NCBI GenBank assembly: GCA_037917675.1
Contig: JAVCBW010000012.1
Span: 1 to 28,995 of the forward strand
Direction: 5' to 3'
Length of the DNA stretch: 28,995 bases
Source: Thermoproteota archaeon
GTDB lineage: Archaea > Korarchaeota > Korarchaeia > B14-G2
Under the pieces are notes generated by a model. The model did no database searches. It was given only the letters and a program-made list of their open reading frames with translations, and had not been told where the DNA came from. This document shows, piece after piece, positions 1,167 to 16,085 of the stretch. A program made the translations under genes and the position numbers. Numbering within the stretch: the stretch's first letter is position 1; each line of letters starts with the position of its first letter.

Positions 1167-2393
1167 GTGAGCATGAGAGGAGTATACGTGGAGTGTAGGC
1201 TAGCTGGAGTGTCAGGCGACATGCTCCTAGCTGCCCTAGCTGACACAGGCATCAGAGAGGATCCTCTAGAAGCAGCTAGGCTGGCATGCAGGTCAGCTGG
1301 GGTCAAGGCATCAGTTAAGCTCACTGAAGTGAAGAGGAGAGGAATCAGAGCAAGCAGGCTGCTAGCTGAAGTAGAGGACAAGAGGCTCAGTATAGAGGAG
1401 ATCAGGAGAGCAGTTGAGCAGGGCTTAGCTGAAGCAGGCTGCTCAAGTAAGGCTATAGAGTACGCTATGAAGGCTATCTCTATCTTGGTGGAGGCTGAGG
1501 CCAAGGTACATGGTGTAAAGCCCAGCGAGGTGCATCTGCATGAGGTAGCCTCCCCTGATACCATAGTAGATGTAGCTGGAGTTGCTGCAGCCCTAGACCT
1601 CCTGAATGCATTCTCCTCACGCGTATACTGCAGCCCAGTAGCCCTCGGAGGAGGAGCCTTTACGTTCTCTCACGGCACCTTCCCAGCTCCAGCTCCAGCT
1701 ACCCTAGAGATCCTGAGGAGAGCAGGCCTCCCATCAGCTGGAGGCCCAGCTTACGGCGAGCTCACAACCCCCACTGGAGCAGCTCTCCTAGCAGCCCTTA
1801 AGCCTGAGCCAGCTAGCTTCCAGCCTGAGATGAGAATTGAGGCAGTTGGCTACGGAGCTGGAGCGAGAGACAGCCCTGAGGTAGCAAATGTCCTCAGGGT
1901 CGTCATCGGAGAGCTTAAGCCGATGCTCATGAGAGAAGAGGTCACTGTCATAGAGGCAAACCTAGACGACGTGACAGGGGAGCTCATGTCTCATACCATA
2001 GAGAGGCTGATGGAGCTTGGAGCAAAGGACGCTATAGCACTCTATGGGTGTGGCAAGAAGGGGAGGCCTGCTATGGTGCTTAAGGTTCTGGCTGCTCCAG
2101 GAGACGCAGAGCATATAGCCATGGCTGTCATAGAGGAGACAGGAACCTTAGGTGTGAGGATGTACGCTTGCTCTAGGAGGCTGCTGAGGAGAGAGCTTGT
2201 GGAAACTGAGGTGGAGGGCGAGAGGATAAGGGTGAAGGTCGCTAGAGACCTGTCTGGCAGGGTTCTGAGAGCTAAGCCTGAGTTCGAGGACTTGAAGAGA
2301 GCTTCAAAGTCAGCTGGCAAGCCGCTGAGGATTGTGATGGATGAAGCTGTAGCTAAGGCTGGTGAGCTTGTGCAGCAAGCTCAGGAAGGCTAG
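1167..2393 (+). CDS. larC: LarC-type nickel insertion protein (DUF111; pyridinium-3,5-bisthiocarboxylic acid mononucleotide nickel chelatase)
   Basis: The N-terminal motif GVSGDMLLAALADTG matches the LarC/DUF111 signature (G-I-S-G-D-M). It is about 400 aa in a single polypeptide. The start is GTG 1167 or ATG 1173. It lies next to larE and larB. Confidence 0.85.
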   Translation: MSMRGVYVECRLAGVSGDMLLAALADTGIREDPLEAARLACRSAGVKASVKLTEVKRRGIRASRLLAEVEDKRLSIEEIRRAVEQGLAEAGCSSKAIEYAMKAISILVEAEAKVHGVKPSEVHLHEVASPDTIVDVAGVAAALDLLNAFSSRVYCSPVALGGGAFTFSHGTFPAPAPATLEILRRAGLPSAGGPAYGELTTPTGAALLAALKPEPASFQPEMRIEAVGYGAGARDSPEVANVLRVVIGELKPMLMREEVTVIEANLDDVTGELMSHTIERLMELGAKDAIALYGCGKKGRPAMVLKVLAAPGDAEHIAMAVIEETGTLGVRMYACSRRLLRRELVETEVEGERIRVKVARDLSGRVLRAKPEFEDLKRASKSAGKPLRIVMDEAVAKAGELVQQAQEG

Positions 2394-3147
2394 AGAGATA
2401 ATCTCCTCTCTGGGGAGTGCAGCTGTAGCTCTCTCAGGTGGGGTAGACAGCTCTCTGGTCACAGCGCTAGCAGCTGAAGCCCTAGCTAGGGTTGTTGCGT
2501 TCACAGTGAGCTCTCCTCTGCTCCCCCCATGGGAGCTAGAGCATGCTAGAGCTGTAGCAGAGTACACTGGGGTAGAGCACGTGGTAGTAGACTTCAATGA
2601 GCTCAATATAGCAGGGTTCGCCGAGAACACGGAGGAGAGATGCTACATATGCAAGAAAGCCAGGTACAGCCTGCTAGCCAGGCTCGCGTCTAGGAGGGGG
2701 CTAGCAGCCATGCTGGACGGAACCAACGCGTCAGATCTCAGGGAGGAGAGGCCTGGGCTGAAGGCCATGAGAGAGCTGGGTGTCAGAGCTCCCTTAGCTG
2801 AAGCAGGCTTGACTAAGCTGGAGGTTAGGGAGGCAGCTAAGCTCCTCAAGCTTCCAGGCGCTGAGAGGCCTCAGGAAAGCTGCCTGGCTACGAGGATCCC
2901 AAGTGGAGAGAGGATAACACTGGAGAGAGTCTTCAAGGTGAGGGCAGCTGAGCAAGCTGTCAGGAGGATCCTAGGAGAGGTGCTCATCCGAGTGAGAGAC
3001 CATGGTGAGATAGCTAGGATAGAGGTTGCTAGAAGCTATCTGCCTAAGGCAGCAGAGCTCCTCCCAGATGCTGTGGGAGAGCTCAGGAGGCTAGGCTACA
3101 GGTACATAACGCTAGACATAGAAGGCTATAGGGGCTCTAGCAGCTAG
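2362..3147 (+). CDS. larE: LarE-type ATP-dependent sacrificial sulfur transferase (PP-loop ATP pyrophosphatase)
   Basis: Has the PP-loop SGGVDSS, a conserved Cys in the CLATRIP context, and a length of about 260 aa. It overlaps the larC 3' end by 32 nt. The start is GTG (or TTG at 2368). Confidence 0.85.
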   Translation: MSLCSKLRKAREIISSLGSAAVALSGGVDSSLVTALAAEALARVVAFTVSSPLLPPWELEHARAVAEYTGVEHVVVDFNELNIAGFAENTEERCYICKKARYSLLARLASRRGLAAMLDGTNASDLREERPGLKAMRELGVRAPLAEAGLTKLEVREAAKLLKLPGAERPQESCLATRIPSGERITLERVFKVRAAEQAVRRILGEVLIRVRDHGEIARIEVARSYLPKAAELLPDAVGELRRLGYRYITLDIEGYRGSSS

Positions 3148-3162
3148 CCTCTGCTCCAGTGG

Positions 3163-3510
3163 CTAGGAGGACGCTGAAAAAGCCTCCCTGACAGCCTTGT
3201 CCACAGAGCTCTGATCTATCCTCTTGAATGCCTCTATGCTGAGTGTGCTATACTTCCACTTTACAGCTCCATCCTGCACCTCATAGTCAACTCTAACCCT
3301 GACTACATCTCCTCTCTCTAGTTGAAGCTTGTTGACCAGTATCTCAAAGAGCATCTTGTTGAGCTCTCCAGCTGCCTTAGCCAGCTCCTTGCTGTCTAGC
3401 TTACCAGACTTCACTAGGCTGCTCTGCTGAGCAAACAGGGTCTTTCTGAGCTTGTCAGCGTAGGCGCCGACTATTATGTACCCCGTGCTGAGCGTAGGCA
3501 TCTCCATCAC
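3163..3510 (-). CDS. Small conserved-looking hypothetical protein (coiled N-terminal half, beta-rich C-terminal half)
   Basis: A 115-aa ORF with host-like codon usage. It is transcribed divergently from larB, and the shared spacer contains gcttaaaacc. I am not certain of any domain. Confidence 0.6.
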   Translation of the reverse strand: MMEMPTLSTGYIIVGAYADKLRKTLFAQQSSLVKSGKLDSKELAKAAGELNKMLFEILVNKLQLERGDVVRVRVDYEVQDGAVKWKYSTLSIEAFKRIDQSSVDKAVREAFSASS

Positions 3511-3563
3511 CGTCCTCAGAGTACACCAGCCTGCTTAAAACCTTAACCTACCTCTAGCAGCCT

Positions 3564-4328
3564 ATGAGGCATATACTTGAGAAGCTAGCTAGAGGAGAGC
3601 TTACAGTAGATGAAGCAGAGAAGATGATCAGAGCTCTCCTACTAGAGGAGGTCAGCGGCCTAGCTCTACTAGACGTCGGCAGAGAGGTCAGGAGGGGGGT
3701 TCCTGAGATAGTCTTAGCAGAGGGGAAGCCTCCTGAAGCCACAGCTAGGATAGCGAGGGCTATACTAGACAGGTGTGGGAGGGTCATAGTCAGCAGAGCA
3801 AGCAGAGAGCACATGGAGGCAGTCAAGAAGGAGATCAAAGACGCCGAGCTAGAGGTGCATGAGCTTGCGAGGATAATAGTTGCTAGGAGAGCCCCCAGAG
3901 AGAAGACAGGCGGGAAGGTAGGTGTGATAACAGCTGGGACATCTGACATACCTATAGCTGAGGAAGCTAAGGTCATAGCTGAGGAGCTAGGCTGTGAAGT
4001 CTATACAGCATATGACGTAGGCGTAGCAGGGGTGCACAGGGCATTCAAGGCTCTGAGAGAGATGATTAGGAGAGACGTAGACGTCATCATAGTAGCTGCA
4101 GGAATGGAGGGAGCTCTACCATCAGTGGTAGCAAGCATGATCGACATACCAGTCATAGGTCTACCAACCTCAGTAGGCTATGGGATGGGAGGTAGAGGAG
4201 AGGCAGCTCTCAAATCCATGCTACAATCCTGCTCTCTCGGTGTAGCAGTAGTCAACATAGATGCTGGCGTAGCAGCTGGAGTCATAGCAGCAATGATAGC
4301 GAACAGAGCAGCCAAGTTCAGGGGATAG
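3564..4328 (+). CDS. larB: LarB-type pyridinium-3,5-biscarboxylic acid mononucleotide synthase (PurE-like NaAD carboxylase/hydrolase)
   Basis: Has a PurE-like core (GKVGVITAGTSDIPIAEEA, VGVAGVHR, IVAAGMEGALPSVVA, GLPTSVGYG) preceded by the LarB-specific N-terminal extension of about 110 aa. Confidence 0.9.
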   Translation: MRHILEKLARGELTVDEAEKMIRALLLEEVSGLALLDVGREVRRGVPEIVLAEGKPPEATARIARAILDRCGRVIVSRASREHMEAVKKEIKDAELEVHELARIIVARRAPREKTGGKVGVITAGTSDIPIAEEAKVIAEELGCEVYTAYDVGVAGVHRAFKALREMIRRDVDVIIVAAGMEGALPSVVASMIDIPVIGLPTSVGYGMGGRGEAALKSMLQSCSLGVAVVNIDAGVAAGVIAAMIANRAAKFRG

Positions 4329-7676: not shown

Positions 7677-8627
7677 ATGCCTCTAGTAGACCCCCATGGG
7701 AGGCCTGTGACAAGTCTCAGGGTCTCAGTGACTCAGAGGTGCAACCTCAAGTGCATATACTGTCACAGAGAGGGGGAGCTAAGCCCTCAAGGAGAGATGG
7801 AGCTTGAGGAGATCACTAGGCTTGTGAGGATTGCATCTGAGCTTGGCATGAGTAAAGTGAAGCTGACTGGCGGAGAGCCTCTGCTGAGGAGAGACATAGT
7901 TGAGCTTGTAGCTGCTATCAGCTCCCTACCTAATGTGAGCGAGGTGTCGATGGTTTCTAACGGTGTCCTCCTGGCTAAGCTGGCAGCTGAGCTAGCTGAA
8001 GCAGGGCTGAGGAGGGTCAATGTCAGCTTAGACACGCTTGATGGAGGGAAGTACCAGCAGATAACTGGGGGAGGAGACGTCAGGAGGGTGGTTCAGGGCA
8101 TAGAGGCAGCTGTTGAGGCTGGCTTGAGGCCGGTTAAGGTGAACATGGTGCTTCTCAAAGGGGTGAATACAGGTGAGATCTGGAGCATGCTTGAGCTCAC
8201 CAAGAGCCTTGGTGCCATCCTGCAGCTCATAGAGCTCGTTTCCAGCTCTCCAAGCTCAGATCCACTCTACAAGCAGTACCACTGGGATCTAGCTGGCATA
8301 GAGGAGGAGCTAAAGAGGAGAGCTAGAGCTATTGTGGTGAGGAGCATGCATAGCAGGAGGAAGTATCTGCTCGAGGATGGTGGTGAGGTTGAGGTTGTGA
8401 AGCCTATGCACAACAGCCTGTTCTGCATGTGCTGCAGCAGGCTCAGGATCACGTCAGATGGGAAGCTTAAGCCATGCCTTATGAGAAACGACAACCTCAT
8501 AGATGCCCTCTCCCTCATGAGAGCTGGTGCAAGCGACAAAGAGCTTGCAAAAACCTTCATAAAGGCTGTCTCACTCAGGGAACCATACTTCAAGGAGGTG
8601 GGGAGATGCCTGAAGTCAGTATGGTAG
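7677..8627 (+). CDS. moaA: GTP 3',8-cyclase (molybdenum cofactor biosynthesis protein A, radical SAM)
   Basis: Has LRVSVTQRCNLKCIYCH (the CxxxCxxC radical SAM cluster), KLTGGEPLLR, and the C-terminal auxiliary-cluster cysteines CMCCSRLRITSDGKLKPCL. Confidence 0.92.
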   Translation: MPLVDPHGRPVTSLRVSVTQRCNLKCIYCHREGELSPQGEMELEEITRLVRIASELGMSKVKLTGGEPLLRRDIVELVAAISSLPNVSEVSMVSNGVLLAKLAAELAEAGLRRVNVSLDTLDGGKYQQITGGGDVRRVVQGIEAAVEAGLRPVKVNMVLLKGVNTGEIWSMLELTKSLGAILQLIELVSSSPSSDPLYKQYHWDLAGIEEELKRRARAIVVRSMHSRRKYLLEDGGEVEVVKPMHNSLFCMCCSRLRITSDGKLKPCLMRNDNLIDALSLMRAGASDKELAKTFIKAVSLREPYFKEVGRCLKSVW

Positions 8628-9046
8628 ACATCACATGTAAGCCTCAGGTCTATAGGGAGGCTGAGGCCTATGGCAGGATAAGGCTCAAGCCTGAGACCGT
8701 TGAGCTCATAAAGAGCAGGAGGATAGAGAAGGGCGACCCCCTCCAGGCTGCTCAGCTTGCTGCAGTGATGGCAGCTAAGAAGACGCCTGAGCTCATACCT
8801 CTCTGCCATCCACTACCGATAACACATGTTGAAGCTGAGGTGAAGCTAGGCTACGACTGCATTGAGGTGTGGTGTAGGGTGAAGACTACTGCTAAGACTG
8901 GTGTCGAGATGGAGGCTTTGACAGCTGTAGCTATAGCTCTTCTGGTGATATGGGACATGGTCAAGAAGTATGAGAAAGATGAGATGGGGCAGTATCCTGC
9001 TACCATGATCGAGGAGGTCAAGGTTGTGAAGAAGGTGAAAGGCTAA
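8606..9046 (+). CDS. moaC: Cyclic pyranopterin monophosphate synthase accessory protein
   Basis: Motifs are MVDI..K, KGDPLQAAQLAAVMAAKKTPELIPLCHPLPI and TGVEMEALTAV. I chose the start at ATG 8606, which is preceded by aaggaggtgggg (SD). The longer tracked ORF from 8474 is an out-of-frame read-through inside moaA. Confidence 0.9.
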   Translation: MPEVSMVDITCKPQVYREAEAYGRIRLKPETVELIKSRRIEKGDPLQAAQLAAVMAAKKTPELIPLCHPLPITHVEAEVKLGYDCIEVWCRVKTTAKTGVEMEALTAVAIALLVIWDMVKKYEKDEMGQYPATMIEEVKVVKKVKG

Positions 9047-9322: not shown

Positions 9323-10858
9323 CTAAACAGGAGCTTTGGCGGGATTCTCAAGGCAAGGCACCTCAAGCCTCTGGCTGACACTGCTATAGATGCAGCCAGG
9401 GTCAGGTGCAAGGTAGTCTCTGAAGTAGCCGTATGCTCTAGCTCTGCATCCTCCACAAACATACTTGAACTCGCAGCTTCCACACTCCCCCCTGAGCTTC
9501 TCCCTGTCTCTAAGGTCCCAGAACACATCGCACCCCATCCACACGTCGCTTAGGCTGTCTTTCTTCATGTCCCCAACTCTGAGAGGCAGGAAGACACACG
9601 GGTATATGCTGCCGTCAGCCTCTATTGCACAGTATAGCCTACCTGCTCCACAGCCACCTATGAAGCTGCTCAGATTGACGAGCTTCCCTCTAAGCCTAGG
9701 GTTATAGAAGTGTCCTGGGACGATGACTTCACTCCCCCCTTCCTCAGCTTGGAGGGCTACTCTAGCAAACTGGGGTGCTGTAGAGAGCACCTGCATCCTT
9801 GAGCTACTCTTGAGCCTGGCCCATAGCATCTTAAGAAGCTCTTCTCTCTCCATTGGAGTCAAGTCGAGGTCGAAGATCTCCTTTCCTCTACCTGTTGGGA
9901 CGAAGTTGTACATCATCCACCAGTCTACTCCAAGCTTCTCACAGAGCTCTATGATCTCCAGAACCTCTCTATAGTTCAGCTTTGTGACTGTTGTAGCGAC
10001 CTCAACGAACACCCCCTCCTCGACCAGGTTCTTTATTCCTCTGATAGCCTTCTCGAATGCTCCTTTCACGCATCTGAAGGAGTCGTGGGTTTCTGCTCTA
10101 GCTCCATCTAAGCTCACTTGGACATAGCCTATCCCAGCCTCTCTGAGCCTAGCTGCAACCTCCCTTGTGATCACTGTGCCATTGGTAGCTACAGCAGTGT
10201 AGAGCCCATGCTCATGGGCCAACTCTGCTATCTCATAAAAGTCTCTTCTCAGCAGAGGCTCTCCACCTGAGAAGGCTACTGCAACAACCCCTGAGTCAGC
10301 TAGGTCTATAACGACGCGTCTAGCCTCTTCTGTGCTCAGCTCTCTGTGTGCAGATTCGCCAGCTGAAGAGTAGCAGTGCTTACACCTGAGGTTGCAAGCA
10401 TATGTGAAGTTCCAGACGATGAGGAATGGTGCTCCAGGGGTGAAGGGCTTCCTCACACCGAAGCTAGCTATCCCTCTGAGAACACTTATGAGTCCTCTTC
10501 TCCAGTAAGGCTGCCTGAAGGCCTCGATGATCTCACTGAAGCTTAAACCAAATGCCTTCCCGCCAGCTTTAACAGCCCACTTGACAGCTGGCTTAGCCAG
10601 GTGCCTGCAGGTCCAGCAGGCTTCCTTCCTGGCTCCAGTGAGGAGCTCAAGGGCGACCTCAAGCCTGCTTTCACCATCCCTCTGGCAGCGTCCTGATAGA
10701 AGCATCAAGAGGCGCCTGGTGGCATTGTTATCGAGAGTATACTTAAGCAGGCTTATGCTGTCGACCTTCAAGCAGACACCTCTCAAACACGTTTCATCGG
10801 TTCTCTTCACATGATCTATTACATAGAAAAACTTTTCGTATTGAAAACATGTTGTCAT
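9323..10858 (-). CDS. Radical SAM / SPASM-domain enzyme with an N-terminal extension of about 150 aa (Cmo-like cofactor maturase or peptide-modifying maturase)
   Basis: Has NFTYACNLRCKHCY (CxxxCxxC), a GGEPLL glycine-rich SAM motif, and a C-terminal SPASM Cys pattern (GGCGAG...YPCVF...CGSCEFKYVCGGCRARAY). The N-terminal 150 aa carries additional Cys pairs and a PqqD/RRE-like stretch, LKYTLDNNATRRLLMLLSG. Confidence 0.88.
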   Translation of the reverse strand: MTTCFQYEKFFYVIDHVKRTDETCLRGVCLKVDSISLLKYTLDNNATRRLLMLLSGRCQRDGESRLEVALELLTGARKEACWTCRHLAKPAVKWAVKAGGKAFGLSFSEIIEAFRQPYWRRGLISVLRGIASFGVRKPFTPGAPFLIVWNFTYACNLRCKHCYSSAGESAHRELSTEEARRVVIDLADSGVVAVAFSGGEPLLRRDFYEIAELAHEHGLYTAVATNGTVITREVAARLREAGIGYVQVSLDGARAETHDSFRCVKGAFEKAIRGIKNLVEEGVFVEVATTVTKLNYREVLEIIELCEKLGVDWWMMYNFVPTGRGKEIFDLDLTPMEREELLKMLWARLKSSSRMQVLSTAPQFARVALQAEEGGSEVIVPGHFYNPRLRGKLVNLSSFIGGCGAGRLYCAIEADGSIYPCVFLPLRVGDMKKDSLSDVWMGCDVFWDLRDREKLRGECGSCEFKYVCGGCRARAYGYFRDYLAPDPGCIYSSVSQRLEVPCLENPAKAPV

Positions 10859-11000
10859 GGCTGGCAGAAAAGCTTCTATTCAGTGGCTTTAACCAGAGTT
10901 CTGGTCCACATGGAGCTGAAAGCCCCATGGGGCCTAGTCAGCATCCTTCTTCTAGTGGTGTAAGCTTTTATCTGTAGCTGGCAGCAGGGGCTAGATCCAG

Positions 11001-12290
11001 ATGCATGCAATCGAAGGTATCTTTCCTGCTATAGCCACCCCCTTTAGTGGAGGAGCTCTAGACATAGAGGCTCTCAGGTCTCTTGTAGAGCATCTGGTTG
11101 AGAAGGATGTGAGTGGTGTGGTTGTAGCTGGGACCACAGGAGAGTTCCCATACCTGAGCATGGAGGAGAGGAGAGCTGCTCTAGAGGCTGCTGTAGATCA
11201 GGTGAATGGGAGGGTGCCTGTCATAGCTGGAGCTGGAGCCTCCTCTACTAGAGAGGCTATAGAGTATGCTAGGCAAGCTGAGGACATTGGAGCTGATGCT
11301 CTGCTTGTTGTCTCACCATACTACTTTAAGCCAAGTGAGAAGGGCGTGTACCAGCACTACATGGAGATCATGGGCAGGATAGACCTGCCTCTGCTAGCAT
11401 ATAACATACCACAGTGCACTGGATACTATATCCCGAGGTCTGTGCTAGAGGACTTAGCTAGCGAGGGGCTGAGTGGAGTAAAGGACAGCAGTGGTAGCCT
11501 ACCATACCTAGCTGAGGTCGCAAGCTATCTCAAGGGGAGAGCTGCAGTGCTCTGTGGCCACGATGAGGTTGTGCTCCCTGCTCTGGTGCTTGGAGCTAGT
11601 GGTGCAATCTTGGCTTCAGCTAACATCATACCTGAGGTCTGGCTTAGAGTCTATAAGGCATTCAAGGAGGGTAAGCTTGAAGAAGCTAGGATGATGCAGG
11701 CTAGGGCTCAGAAGCTGGCTAGGCTGATAGCCAGGTATGGCCCATTGGCTGTAAAGGCTGCTCTGAGAGACCTAGGGCTCCCAGCTGGCAGGTGTAGAGC
11801 TCCTCTGAAGGCTGGTGGCTCACTGCCAAGAGAGGTCAGAGAAGAGATCAGGCTAGAGCTAGCGAAGCTGGGTGCAATCCCCATGGAGCTTCCGCCTGAA
11901 GCTGAAGTCCACATAGAGGTTGAAGCTGGCCTGAAGAGCAGTGAGGTCGGCTACAGGTGGGCTAGGGAGCTAGCTAGGCCTAAGGCCTTCAGGGAAGCTC
12001 TCCTAGCTGTAGCTGAGCCGAACCTGGCTGCTAAGCCTCCGACTCTGATAGTCCCTGAGGTCGATATCAGAAGCTTGAGGCAGGCTAGTATGGTCTATGG
12101 GCCAGTTCAGGCTGCAGTCGCTAGGGCTGTCATAGACTCCATTGGAAGCTCTATCCCACCTGAGGCTTGTGAAAGCCATGTCATAATAGTTAGGGTCAAG
12201 CTGAGCCCGAGCCTAGTGGACAGGAACGCTGTCTACTGGAGCACATACAGAGAGGTGGTGAAGGCATTGAAGGAGGTGAAGTGGAGTTGA
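11001..12290 (+). CDS. DHDPS/NAL-family class I aldolase fused to a truncated Fae-like (formaldehyde-activating enzyme) domain
   Basis: Residues 1-295 carry VVVAGTTGEF, LLAYNIPQCTG and the Schiff-base Lys context SGVKDSSGS. Residues 300-429 (nt ~11898-12287) resemble the central part of Fae (LLAVAEPNLAAKPPTL...YGPVQAAVARAV...IP) but lack the VGEAL N-terminus and the HPF C-terminus. TATA-like gcttttatc lies about 33 nt upstream. Confidence 0.8.
   Translation: MHAIEGIFPAIATPFSGGALDIEALRSLVEHLVEKDVSGVVVAGTTGEFPYLSMEERRAALEAAVDQVNGRVPVIAGAGASSTREAIEYARQAEDIGADALLVVSPYYFKPSEKGVYQHYMEIMGRIDLPLLAYNIPQCTGYYIPRSVLEDLASEGLSGVKDSSGSLPYLAEVASYLKGRAAVLCGHDEVVLPALVLGASGAILASANIIPEVWLRVYKAFKEGKLEEARMMQARAQKLARLIARYGPLAVKAALRDLGLPAGRCRAPLKAGGSLPREVREEIRLELAKLGAIPMELPPEAEVHIEVEAGLKSSEVGYRWARELARPKAFREALLAVAEPNLAAKPPTLIVPEVDIRSLRQASMVYGPVQAAVARAVIDSIGSSIPPEACESHVIIVRVKLSPSLVDRNAVYWSTYREVVKALKEVKWS
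11108..11169 (+). repeat. 62-nt tract identical to 12400-12461 in the downstream paralog
   Basis: The sequence tgtgagtggtgtggttgtagctgggaccacaggagagttcccatacctgagcatggaggaga is present in both aldolase genes at a constant offset of 1292 nt. The flanking positions differ. Confidence 0.9.
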
Positions 12291-13684
12291 AGCTCAGGAT
12301 AGAGGGTGTTCTGTCAGCTATAGTGACGCCTTTCAAGGAGGATGGCAGCCTCAACCTCGAGGCCTTCAGCTCTCTAGTGGAGTGGCAGCTCAAGGCTGGT
12401 GTGAGTGGTGTGGTTGTAGCTGGGACCACAGGAGAGTTCCCATACCTGAGCATGGAGGAGAAGGCTGAGCTCTTCGAGCAGGCTTCAAGCCTCCTGTCAG
12501 GGAGAGGCCTCTTCATAGCTGGCGCCTGTGCCCCCTCGACAAGGGAGGTAATTGAAGTAGCTCACCTAGCAGAGAGGTGTGGAGCTGATGCTCTGCTTGT
12601 CATCTCACCATACTACTTCAAGCCAACTGACAAGGAGATCTATGAGCACTATGAGAGGGTTGCAAGTGAGACTGCTGCTCCAGTCATACTCTATAACATG
12701 CCTAAGCTGACAGGCTATACCATACCATGGTGGGTTGTAGAGGGGCTTGCTGAGCTAGACGACATAGCTGGGATAAAGGACTCTTCTGGTAGCATAGCCT
12801 ACATCTCAACCCTATACGAGAAGGTTAAGGGGGAGATCTCGATACTCTGTGGCAGCGGGGAGGTCGTTGTGGGGGCTCTGGCAGCTGGGGCAGACGGCCT
12901 GATACTTGCTGCAGCAAACGTGCTACCAGAGGAGCTAGCTGAGATATACAGGCTCTTCAAGGAGGGCAAGGTAGCTGAGGCACGAGAGCTCCAGAGTAGT
13001 ATCCAAACTCTGCTGAGGCTCATCGGAAGCTATGGTGCTTCAGCTGTAAAGACGTGTCTGAGAGCTATGGGCTTCAATGTAGGACACACGAGGCCCCCCC
13101 TAATCCGAGGGGGCTCACCTCCATATGATGTCGAGATGGAGCTGCTGAGCAGGCTGGCTAAGCTTGGGAAGGTGAGCTTTAAGCCTACTGCCAGAGAATT
13201 CACTCTACTGGTTGGAGAGGCATTGACAACACCTGGCTCAGTTGACTTGGCTCACATAGACTTAGTGCTAGGGGTGGAGGATGGGCCTGTAGGTGAGGCT
13301 TTCAATGAAGCTCTCAGGGAAGAGAACCCAGCTAGGAGGCCTACTCTACTGGACACTAAGCCTAAGGTAGCTGTGGTCCCGACAACCCCTATGGTCAAGG
13401 AGAGGCATCGCCAGCTTTTCTACCACTATGCTACAAAGGGAGTTGAGATGGCTGTGAGAGAGGCTGCTGAGAGCGGGCTTATCCCAGGGGAGCTAGCTGG
13501 CAAGCTAGTCATGGTAGCTAACGTGTTCGTACACCCTGATGCAACGAACCCTAGGAGAGTGATGATGAACAACTATAAGGCTATGAGAGATGCCTTGATC
13601 AAGGCTCTCACAGGGAGACCTACCCTAAGCGAGCTATCTGCTCTAGGAAAGTCAGCTAGGCACCCGTTCAGGTATGAGCCTTAG
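12281..13684 (+). CDS. DHDPS/NAL-family class I aldolase fused to a full-length Fae-like domain
   Basis: Residues 1-300 carry VVVAGTTGEF, ILYNMPKLTG and IAGIKDSSGS. Residues ~307-467 (nt ~13199-13681) align end to end with Methylobacterium Fae as I recall it (VGEAL, LAHIDLVLG, AF, GLIP, VFVHPDA, NNYKA, ARHPF). The GTG start is preceded by aggaggtga (SD) and overlaps the upstream stop by 10 nt. Confidence 0.85.
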   Translation: MELKLRIEGVLSAIVTPFKEDGSLNLEAFSSLVEWQLKAGVSGVVVAGTTGEFPYLSMEEKAELFEQASSLLSGRGLFIAGACAPSTREVIEVAHLAERCGADALLVISPYYFKPTDKEIYEHYERVASETAAPVILYNMPKLTGYTIPWWVVEGLAELDDIAGIKDSSGSIAYISTLYEKVKGEISILCGSGEVVVGALAAGADGLILAAANVLPEELAEIYRLFKEGKVAEARELQSSIQTLLRLIGSYGASAVKTCLRAMGFNVGHTRPPLIRGGSPPYDVEMELLSRLAKLGKVSFKPTAREFTLLVGEALTTPGSVDLAHIDLVLGVEDGPVGEAFNEALREENPARRPTLLDTKPKVAVVPTTPMVKERHRQLFYHYATKGVEMAVREAAESGLIPGELAGKLVMVANVFVHPDATNPRRVMMNNYKAMRDALIKALTGRPTLSELSALGKSARHPFRYEP

Positions 13685-15960: not shown

Positions 15961-16085
15961 GGGTTAGCGGTCAAAGCGCCGGGGAAACGCCCGGACTCAT
16001 GCCGAACCCGGAAGCTAAGCCCGGTGGCGTCCCGTGTTGTACTGTGCTCCGAGAGGGCACGGGAAGCACGGGAGACTGCTAACCC
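15961..16085 (+). rRNA. rrf: 5S ribosomal RNA (solitary, not linked to 16S/23S in this window)
   Basis: Helix I pairs 5' GGGUUAGC with 3' GCUAACCC. The conserved archaeal 5S core is CCCGGACUCAUGCCGAACCCGGAAGCUAAGCC. The length is 125 nt. Confidence 0.93.

Follow-up and report, generated by a model that had tools for sequence, protein, structure and literature searches.

Fusions of formaldehyde-activating enzyme (Fae) with a carbon-carbon lyase for which formaldehyde is a product or a substrate are represented in archaea by Fae-Hps, which operates in a tetrahydromethanopterin (H4MPT) context. Here we analyze two adjacent genes, ORF1 and ORF2 (ORF, open reading frame), each coding for an aldolase domain followed by an Fae-like module. 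They are located in a stretch of 28,995 nucleotides (referred to as the window throughout), the complete contig JAVCBW010000012.1 from an uncultured Thermoproteota archaeon. The pair would follow the same logic as Fae-Hps, in which formaldehyde is kept pterin-bound, yet the two arrangements differ. In Fae-Hps the partner is the C-terminal Hps domain, which has the orotidine monophosphate (OMP) decarboxylase fold and acts on a sugar phosphate. In the pair, by contrast, the partner is a Schiff-base aldolase of the dihydrodipicolinate synthase/N-acetylneuraminate lyase (DHDPS/NAL) type, which is N-terminal to Fae and whose substrate must be a 2-oxo acid. Moreover, only the pair splits the Fae site between two paralogous chains. 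ORF1 and ORF2 are probably the two parts of one enzyme, which would transfer a one-carbon (C1) unit from a pterin cofactor to a 2-oxo acid or in the reverse direction.

Both domains also have well-described relatives outside such fusions. Stand-alone Fae from M. extorquens (PDB 1Y5Y/1Y60) shares its fold with the modeled ORF1 module (template modelling score (TM) 0.80), and all of its motifs are present in single-gene members of the family (S-type, see below). This enzyme is reportedly a homopentamer with identical inter-subunit sites. In its structure the cofactor is said to occupy the cleft between neighboring subunits, with His22 as the proposed acid catalyst and with Gln88 and the C-terminal arm reportedly rearranging upon binding. 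Since such a site is formed by two faces of identical subunits, it can be partitioned after gene duplication, and in the pair the motifs are indeed distributed over two aldolase-tethered chains. On the aldolase side, DapA and NAL have in common with the pair the fold, the GTTGE carboxylate motif, the Tyr133/Thr44/Tyr107 triad and the Schiff-base Lys161. In contrast to these enzymes, the pair has no DapA Arg138, features an NAL-like G-x-D-E motif together with family-specific Q137-C138 and C185, and adds a C-terminal Fae module of ~140-190 residues. The third relevant enzyme, ketopantoate hydroxymethyltransferase (PanB), uses a reduced pterin as donor of a methylene group, which it attaches to C3 of a 2-oxo acid. 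For the pair we propose the same net reaction (methylene-pterin + 2-oxo acid -> 4-hydroxy-2-oxo acid), and PanB takes the same, mutually exclusive, operon position beside a gene that we labeled N1 (and beside DUF6485). However, PanB is a metal-dependent, tetrahydrofolate-using member of the isocitrate lyase/phosphoenolpyruvate (PEP) mutase superfamily, whereas the pair combines a lysine Schiff-base barrel with an Fae module. There is no sequence or fold relationship between the two, and their equivalence would follow from gene context only.

A sequence-only reading of this locus had assigned a DHDPS/NAL-type aldolase domain and an Fae-like C-terminal domain to both ORFs. Profile searches agree with these assignments. 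The DHDPS domain (Pfam PF00701) was detected in ORF1 with an E-value of 1.2e-74 (251 bits) and in ORF2 with an E-value of 7.7e-73 (245 bits), and the Fae domain (PF08714) with E-values of 1.2e-26 (94.0 bits; profile positions 13-135 of 159) and 9.8e-27 (94.3 bits; positions 1-158), respectively. All four matches are far above the gathering cutoffs (22.1 bits for PF00701 and 27 bits for PF08714). The GTTGE and YN(I/M)P motifs and the Schiff-base lysine within G(V/I)KDSSGS, which the same reading had pointed out, are found in both ORFs. ORF2 can be aligned to M. extorquens Fae (1Y5Y) over residues 6-166 (E 2.6e-17) and ORF1 over residues 20-118 (E 7.2e-10). A structural model of the ORF1 module, obtained with an alignment of type A modules (defined below) as input, had a predicted local distance difference test score (pLDDT) of 79.9 and a predicted TM score (pTM) of 0.79. 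Its sole significant match in PDB was Fae (1Y60/1Y5Y; TM 0.80, root-mean-square deviation 2.8 A, E 1.3e-9), the second-best fold match having an E-value of 0.35. The kinship with Fae is thus backed by profile matches in both ORFs and by the modeled structure of the ORF1 module. The NCBIfam Fae model (TIGR03126, cutoff 118.05 bits) is missed by both ORF1 (89 bits) and ORF2 (106 bits), because each of them follows the residue-loss pattern of its type described below. The bifunctional family PRK13307 was matched through its Fae part only (profile positions 2-160 of 392). Pfam and NCBIfam searches detected neither an Hps domain nor any match to PanB (PF02548/TIGR00222) in either protein.

The two Fae modules differ in what they have retained. 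Using M. extorquens Fae numbering, the ORF1 module keeps E50, L52, E57, P58-N59-L60, R78-Q79-A80 and G85-P86-x-Q88 (LLAV-EPNL-KP and YGPVQ in the sequence) and lacks the N-terminal strand (7-15), F119, H121 and the C-terminal arm. The ORF2 module keeps E11, A21-H22-x-D24, G32-P33, F119, H121, R129, N133-N134, K136 and the RHPF-Y-P arm (motifs VGEAL, AHIDL and NNY...RHPF) and lacks the PNL loop and GPxQ. Neither chain alone has the complete Fae active-site set (His22, Asp24, PNL, GPxQ88, F119, H121 and the HPF arm), while the union of the two is complete.

This complementary residue loss extends to the entire family and affects the Fae domain only. Conservation was counted in 62 sequences related to ORF1 (type A) and 124 related to ORF2 (type B). 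E50, L52, E57, N59, L60, R78, Q79, A80, G85, P86 and Q88 are 100% conserved in type A and not conserved in type B. The P58-C62 loop is deleted in type B (P58 is absent in 100% and N59-C62 in 72% of the sequences), whereas P58 is present in 93% of type A. The opposite is observed for H22 (100% in type B versus 37% in type A), D24 (99% versus not conserved, the commonest residue in type A being Ser with 24%), F119 (100% versus 24%) and H121 (100% versus 35%). Likewise, E11, A21, P33, R129, N133, N134 and K136 are 100% conserved in type B and, except N133 (83%), not conserved in type A, and the C-terminal arm (R163-H164-P165...Y168...P170) is 100% conserved in type B and absent in all type A sequences. 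As a reference we took the 60 positions at which M. extorquens Fae and the S-type consensus have the same residue; 22 of these are conserved in type B only, 13 in type A only, 8 in both and 17 in neither. The same count for the aldolase domain gave 5, 9, 49 and 11, respectively. The excess of positions conserved in only one partner is therefore specific to the Fae domain (Fisher's test, odds ratio 15, p 1.3e-9). A reference made up of positions conserved within S-type alone was uninformative (p 0.84), as the S-type sample is shallow. The complementarity noted in the sequence-only reading is therefore present both in the pair and throughout the family; its description of the ORF1 module as devoid of both ends has to be amended, as the His22 position is still occupied by His in ORF1 (VHIEV, residue 304), although His is not conserved there in type A. 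Overall, the split argues for an obligate heteromer that would have one composite Fae site per A:B interface.

To see how general the arrangement is, we considered the best 120 matches per ORF in a collection of 5.8 billion proteins. All of them contain both PF00701 and PF08714 and are 40-52% identical to the query, and their named sources include Bathyarchaeia, Thermoplasmata, Promethearchaeota, Thermoproteota and Chloroflexi/Anaerolineae. The architecture is common: protein clusters that have it number in the hundreds and derive from Bathyarchaeia, Thermoplasmata, Asgard archaea, Korarchaeota-like archaea and Anaerolineae. A scan of GTDB genomes, in which at least ~15 of the 80 listed loci were true fusions and the others ordinary DapA, added Thorarchaeota and a metagenome-assembled genome (MAG) labeled as Spirochaetota. 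Databases name the fusion proteins either '4-hydroxy-tetrahydrodipicolinate synthase' or 'formaldehyde-activating enzyme', the former because both proteins exceed the NCBIfam dapA cutoff. A full-text literature search returned no paper on a DHDPS-Fae fusion. The sequence-only reading knew of no characterized DHDPS-Fae architecture. The family is uncharacterized, not unseen, as it is common in metagenomes under automatic DapA or Fae labels, and it also exists as a single gene with a complete Fae domain. Both domains and the idea of an Fae-lyase fusion (Fae-Hps) were already known, and database entries already show the architecture. New here are the recognition of a distinct, widespread non-DapA family, of a probable split inter-subunit Fae site in a conserved gene pair and of its PanB-equivalent genomic position.

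Wherever gene order was readable, an ORF1-like gene precedes an ORF2-like gene; this order is seen in the window, in loci L001, L003, L004, L007, L009, L011 and L013-L020 and in further loci. These come from Bathyarchaeia, Thermoplasmata, Promethearchaeota, Thorarchaeota, Anaerolineae and the Spirochaetota-labeled MAG. Every type A locus has type B close downstream, except for L098 and L127, where contigs end inside or just after type A. At most junctions the two genes overlap or are separated by 1-30 nt, and GGAGG is frequently found where the first gene ends. The two classes were assigned from a neighbor-joining tree of 251 sequences, which splits 127/124, with all upstream genes and S-type on one side and all downstream genes on the other. 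S-type members, found in three of the examined loci and in many Bathyarchaeia, are single genes of ~492-500 aa with complete canonical Fae motifs, and they pass the NCBIfam Fae cutoff (219 versus 118 bits). Presumably, S-type is homomeric and resembles the ancestor of the A/B pair. The hetero-oligomer suggested in the sequence-only reading has gained strength from the conserved A-then-B tandem, the separate clades and the family-wide complementary loss in the Fae domain, all of which are comparative arguments. ORF1 and ORF2 are 41% identical over the full length. ORF1 is short for type A (429 aa compared to the median of 477 aa). The nearest relatives of ORF1 and ORF2, RLG49790.1 and RLG49791.1, are Thermoproteota/Candidatus Korarchaeota MAG proteins with 86-87% identity. 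We could rule out a pseudogene or an assembly artefact, as the ORFs are intact and conserved at this level in relatives, and the retained motifs are conserved at ~100% across the family. In the complete Thermoplasmata genome CP070726.1 (locus L003, 9131-9999), the gene 5' of type B is called as a 288-aa protein matching only the C-terminal part of type A; the gene may be frameshifted or truncated, or its start may have been miscalled.

The aldolase pocket was compared with those of E. coli DapA and NanA, both sequences having been verified against PDB (E. coli DapA numbering is used). The residues T44, T45, Y133 and K161 are conserved in 94-100% of the family and Y107 in 74-94%, and all of them are present in ORF1 and ORF2. 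The specificity determinants are different. Arg138, which binds the carboxylate of aspartate semialdehyde and separates DapA from NAL, is replaced by Cys in ORF1 and by Leu in ORF2, the latter matching Leu142 of NanA. Position 138/142 is known to switch between DHDPS and NAL specificity. Across the family this position is Cys in 72-85% of sequences, otherwise Val or Thr, and Arg is never among the commonest residues. The G186-D-D-A stretch of DapA is G-H-D-E in the family and in ORF1, which corresponds to the G-x-D-E motif of NanA. Thus, the ORF1 pocket is family-typical (Q137, C138, G-H-D-E), whereas that of ORF2 has K137, L138, S187 and G188 (followed by Glu: S-G-E) and keeps the Lys, Tyr and Thr residues. 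Relative P0001 (86% identical to ORF2) shares L138, S187 and G188 and retains Q137. From these substitutions it seems that labor may be further divided in the pair, with ORF1 as the main aldolase and ORF2 as the main carrier of the Fae catalytic His.

Genomic neighborhoods of the family draw attention to N1, an unannotated gene for a 316-aa protein whose Chloroflexi and archaeal versions share 64-82% identity. Its family has ~1000 representatives at 50% identity. The N1 model is a (beta/alpha)8 barrel (pLDDT 66, pTM 0.73) that matches only generic TIM barrels (class II aldolases and methylisocitrate lyases, TM 0.45-0.5). Another unannotated gene, N2, codes for a protein of ~427 aa, 62-79% identical between Bathyarchaeia and Anaerolineae; it adjoins S-type in L008 and L088 and is 7 nt upstream of type A in L017. 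Neither N1 nor N2 has a Pfam, NCBIfam or PDB sequence match. Their profile comparison (hhalign) gave a weak match (probability 19%, E 1.3e-3), and an N1 HMMER search recovered no clear N2-sized proteins.

Among 83 N1 loci, 14 have type A followed by type B on the same strand, 37-985 nt downstream, and in 13 a PanB gene on the same strand is no more than 3 kb away, the distance being 7-115 nt in most cases. In six loci N1 is accompanied by class I fumarase-like alpha/beta genes (in five of them within 1 kb downstream on the same strand). Two of these partner types never occur together (0/83). The contig is too short to judge in 29 loci, and the remaining 21, flanked by 3 kb or more on either side, have none of the three partners. 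The N1-linked PanB genes are bona fide (Pfam E 5e-112; TIGR00222 316-319 bits, cutoff 208). In the N1 tree, loci linked to PanB and to the pair are interleaved: L124 and L089 (PanB) are next to L127, L116 and L121 (pair), and L115 and L125 (PanB) are next to L109 (pair). This indicates that the partner of N1 has been swapped repeatedly. DUF6485, a 65-aa Cys-rich protein with the motif CTCTYEPC...CCEC, is encoded between types A and B in many Chloroflexi-type loci. It is also found just after PanB (L115 and L125) and in L102, accompanying the N1-PanB cluster as well. Genes for FolD, formate-tetrahydrofolate ligase (FTHFS), MTHFR and FSA/TalC are often near N1. The pair joins a pterin-methylene module with a C3-enamine module and alternates with PanB, as would be expected of non-homologous enzymes doing the same job. 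The alternation in the same operon slot indirectly supports the proposed C1 chemistry. Nothing on an archaeal ketopantoate hydroxymethyltransferase was found in a full-text literature search.

Taken together, these data are best explained by a heteromeric aldolase-Fae enzyme that has a composite Fae site and carries out coupled transfer of a hydroxymethyl group from pterin to a 2-oxo acid. We estimate the probability of this explanation as a whole at roughly 45%. In such an enzyme, A and B would assemble through DHDPS-type interfaces, each chain contributing a class I Schiff-base lysine 2-oxo-acid aldolase barrel and one face of the Fae inter-subunit cleft. Type A would give the PNL-loop/GPxQ (Gln88) face and type B the His22 face together with the C-terminal arm, so that the paired Fae modules would have one complete pterin/formaldehyde site per A:B pair. 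Methylene-pterin and water would be interconverted with formaldehyde and pterin (presumably H4MPT) in the cleft, and formaldehyde would react reversibly with the lysine-bound enamine (Lys161 in ORF1 or else Lys166 in ORF2), a 4-hydroxy-2-oxo acid being formed. The net outcome would be hydroxymethyl transfer (methylene-pterin + 2-oxo acid <-> 4-hydroxy-2-oxo acid + pterin), that is, PanB chemistry on unrelated folds. The 2-oxo acid could be pyruvate, yielding 4-hydroxy-2-oxobutanoate, or 2-oxoisovalerate, yielding ketopantoate. It may be the latter instead of pyruvate, the substrate put forward as a speculation in the sequence-only reading. A broader proposal is that DHDPS-Fae, either as the S homomer or as the A/B heteromer, is an unrecognized 2-oxo-acid hydroxymethylase working with Schiff base and pterin-methylene. 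It would be a counterpart of PanB, not homologous to it, in lineages with methanopterin as the C1 carrier, supplying ketopantoate for coenzyme A or 4-hydroxy-2-oxobutanoate for a formaldehyde/homoserine-type route, with N1 as the next enzyme. We offer this proposal as a tentative one and think it somewhat doubtful in its entirety.

A number of observations count against the coupled heteromeric enzyme. ORF2 has lost Asp188, which is otherwise invariant in the family and is kept in 122 of the 124 type B sequences, and judging from its pocket residues only ORF1 may be a working aldolase in this lineage. In NAL, the conserved Asp-Glu of GxDE binds sugar hydroxyls, and by comparison a larger aldehyde with hydroxyl groups would suit this motif better than formaldehyde would. 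Fae is a homopentamer, whereas DHDPS enzymes are typically tetramers, which makes the quaternary arrangement of A and B hard to place. Anaerolineae carry the pair but, to our knowledge, are not known to make H4MPT; there the cofactor could be a different one. The argument from PanB is guilt by association through the uncharacterized N1, and the 21 well-flanked N1 loci mentioned above carry neither the pair nor PanB. Finally, none of N1, N2 and PanB is encoded within the window itself.

It might be argued that the two activities are simply uncoupled, a sugar-acid or other pyruvate aldolase (similar to NAL or 2-keto-3-deoxygluconate (KDG) aldolase) being fused to an ordinary Fae that detoxifies formaldehyde into the H4MPT pathway. 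The NAL-like G-x-D-E motif in the pocket and the peptidase and sugar-related genes often found near the pair would be in line with this possibility. A survey of Bathyarchaeia, moreover, counts 'fae' as widespread and interprets it as formaldehyde detoxification, so that reconstructions for this group already read these genes in such a way (PMC10321748). However, members of different phyla have all preserved the fusion, as have the three subtypes and both partners of the pair. In addition, the split of the Fae site over two aldolase-bearing chains ties Fae function to the aldolase oligomer, and the pair alternates with PanB, which unites the same two chemistries. We therefore find an uncoupled fusion unlikely. 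A similarly low probability can be given to a catabolic lyase, which would have the chemistry of the coupled enzyme with direction and role reversed, as with Fae-Hps in the reverse ribulose-monophosphate pathway: a 4-hydroxy-2-oxo acid, such as 4-hydroxy-2-oxobutanoate derived from homoserine or a tetronate, would be cleaved and Fae would trap the released formaldehyde as methylene-H4MPT. Fae-Hps itself provides a precedent (PRK13307 is a related bifunctional family), peptidase genes adjoin the pair, and the hosts are, according to the literature, anaerobic degraders of peptides and organic matter that have the H4MPT pathway. On the other hand, no catabolic gene such as homoserine transaminase or dehydrogenase is consistently linked to the pair at the examined loci, and the alternating partner PanB is biosynthetic in known systems.

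The Fae modules could also have no Fae chemistry at all and act as oligomerization or regulatory domains, or bind another ligand, in an aldolase of unspecified specificity. Each module of the pair is incomplete and scores under the NCBIfam Fae cutoff, and the bacterial hosts may be without H4MPT. Yet the surviving residues are precisely the deeply conserved ones of Fae, at 99-100% (His22, Asp24 and the HPF arm in type B; PNL and GPxQ in type A), the union of A and B rebuilds the canonical set, and the single-gene form is complete and passes the cutoff. We consider loss of Fae chemistry to be rather improbable, more so than the two preceding possibilities. The least probable of all is a genuine DapA of lysine biosynthesis with an accessory Fae domain. 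This is what automatic annotation suggests, as both proteins exceed the NCBIfam dapA (TIGR00674) cutoff of 206.15 bits (224.0 and 224.7 bits for ORF1 and ORF2, respectively) and their best PDB sequence matches are DapA enzymes. It is contradicted by the replacement of Arg138 (Cys in most of the family and in ORF1, Leu in ORF2) and of D187-D188-A189 (H-D-E in the family and ORF1, S-G-E in ORF2). Furthermore, no dap gene is present in the window or adjacent to the fusion in 20 related loci. On the basis of Arg138 and the other pocket residues we rejected the assignment as a true DapA.

The coupled two-chain enzyme, if real, would be a new means of forming or breaking a carbon-carbon bond with a pterin-bound C1 unit, and it could explain pantoate synthesis in organisms that rely on methanopterin. 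The family would also exemplify how an inter-subunit active site of a homo-oligomer is split by gene duplication into an obligate heteromer. Genes of the pair are abundant in very numerous sediment microbes (Bathyarchaeia, Asgard archaea, Thermoplasmata and Anaerolineae), in which they now carry two misleading labels: 'DapA' inflates lysine-pathway calls, and 'Fae' is taken as evidence of formaldehyde detoxification. A natural, pterin-coupled aldolase for pyruvate and formaldehyde could also attract practical interest, since enzymes acting on these two substrates are wanted for synthetic methanol assimilation.

Coordinates of the pair, its domains and the associated genes at other loci are listed in Table 1. 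The TGA stop codon of ORF1 overlaps the candidate starts of ORF2, an arrangement that would be compatible with translational coupling. Upstream of ORF1, the element CTTTTATC may be its archaeal promoter.

Table 1. Positions of the gene pair in the window and of associated genes at related loci
Feature	Position	Strand	Remarks
ORF1	11001..12290	+	429 aa, ATG start at 11001; type A (upstream) member
ORF1 class I aldolase domain	11010..11810	+	DHDPS/NAL family, residues 4-270
ORF1 Lys161 codon	11481..11483	+	predicted Schiff-base lysine (GVKDSSGS)
ORF1 Fae-like half-module	11907..12272	+	residues 303-424
ORF2	12281..13684	+	467 aa, GTG start at 12281; type B (downstream) member
ORF2 class I aldolase domain	12302..13105	+	residues 8-275
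ORF2 pocket changes Q137K, C138L, H187S, D188G	12692..12706; 12848..12862	+	residues 138-142; residues 190-194
ORF2 Lys166 codon	12776..12778	+	predicted Schiff-base lysine (GIKDSSGS)
ORF2 Fae-like half-module	13211..13669	+	residues 311-463
ORF2 His325 codon	13253..13255	+	aligns with proposed catalytic His22 of M. extorquens Fae
Gene junction	12271..12290	+	GGAGGTG 12271-12277; ORF2 start candidates GTG 12281 and TTG 12287; ORF1 TGA 12288-12290
CTTTTATC	10964..10971	+	A+T-rich TATA-like element ~30-37 nt 5' of ORF1 ATG; putative, read from sequence
S-type genes	L008 3737-5224; L012 4636-6147; L088 10001-11503		Bathyarchaeia
N1 genes	L004 7510-8448(-); L006 253-1203; L007 7494-8426; L009 6883-7833; L015 6964-7914; L089-L171 (e.g. 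L090 6001-6951)		
N2 genes	L001 5448-6731; L008 2068-3357(-); L017 7270-8538; L020 4256-5548; L022 7832-9115(-); L088 8658-9932(-)		
DUF6485 genes	L005 2927-3124; L009 9679-9870; L015 9471-9659; also L092, L093, L094, L112, L116		

In the window the pair is flanked by genes for MoaA/MoaC, PadR, a radical-SAM/SPASM protein and a methyltransferase, by 5S rRNA and by housekeeping genes, which give no functional hint. The radical-SAM/SPASM protein (9323-10858, minus strand; 511 aa with an N-terminal extension of ~140 residues) is encoded divergently from ORF1, and the PadR regulator ORF overlaps the 3' end of its gene. There is no sign that the radical-SAM/SPASM gene is linked to the pair at other loci. 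The 5S rRNA gene (15963-16084; Rfam 92 bits) is isolated: the window contains neither a 16S nor a 23S rRNA gene. Genes for LarC-like (nickel insertion, PF01969), LarE-like (PP-loop ATPase) and LarB-like (AIR carboxylase domain) proteins are found together at 1167-4328; in known systems, such a set makes the nickel-pincer nucleotide cofactor. The molybdopterin synthesis genes moaA and moaC are adjacent (7677-9046). Since the longest MoaC ORF overlaps MoaA by ~150 nt, its true start is probably further downstream.

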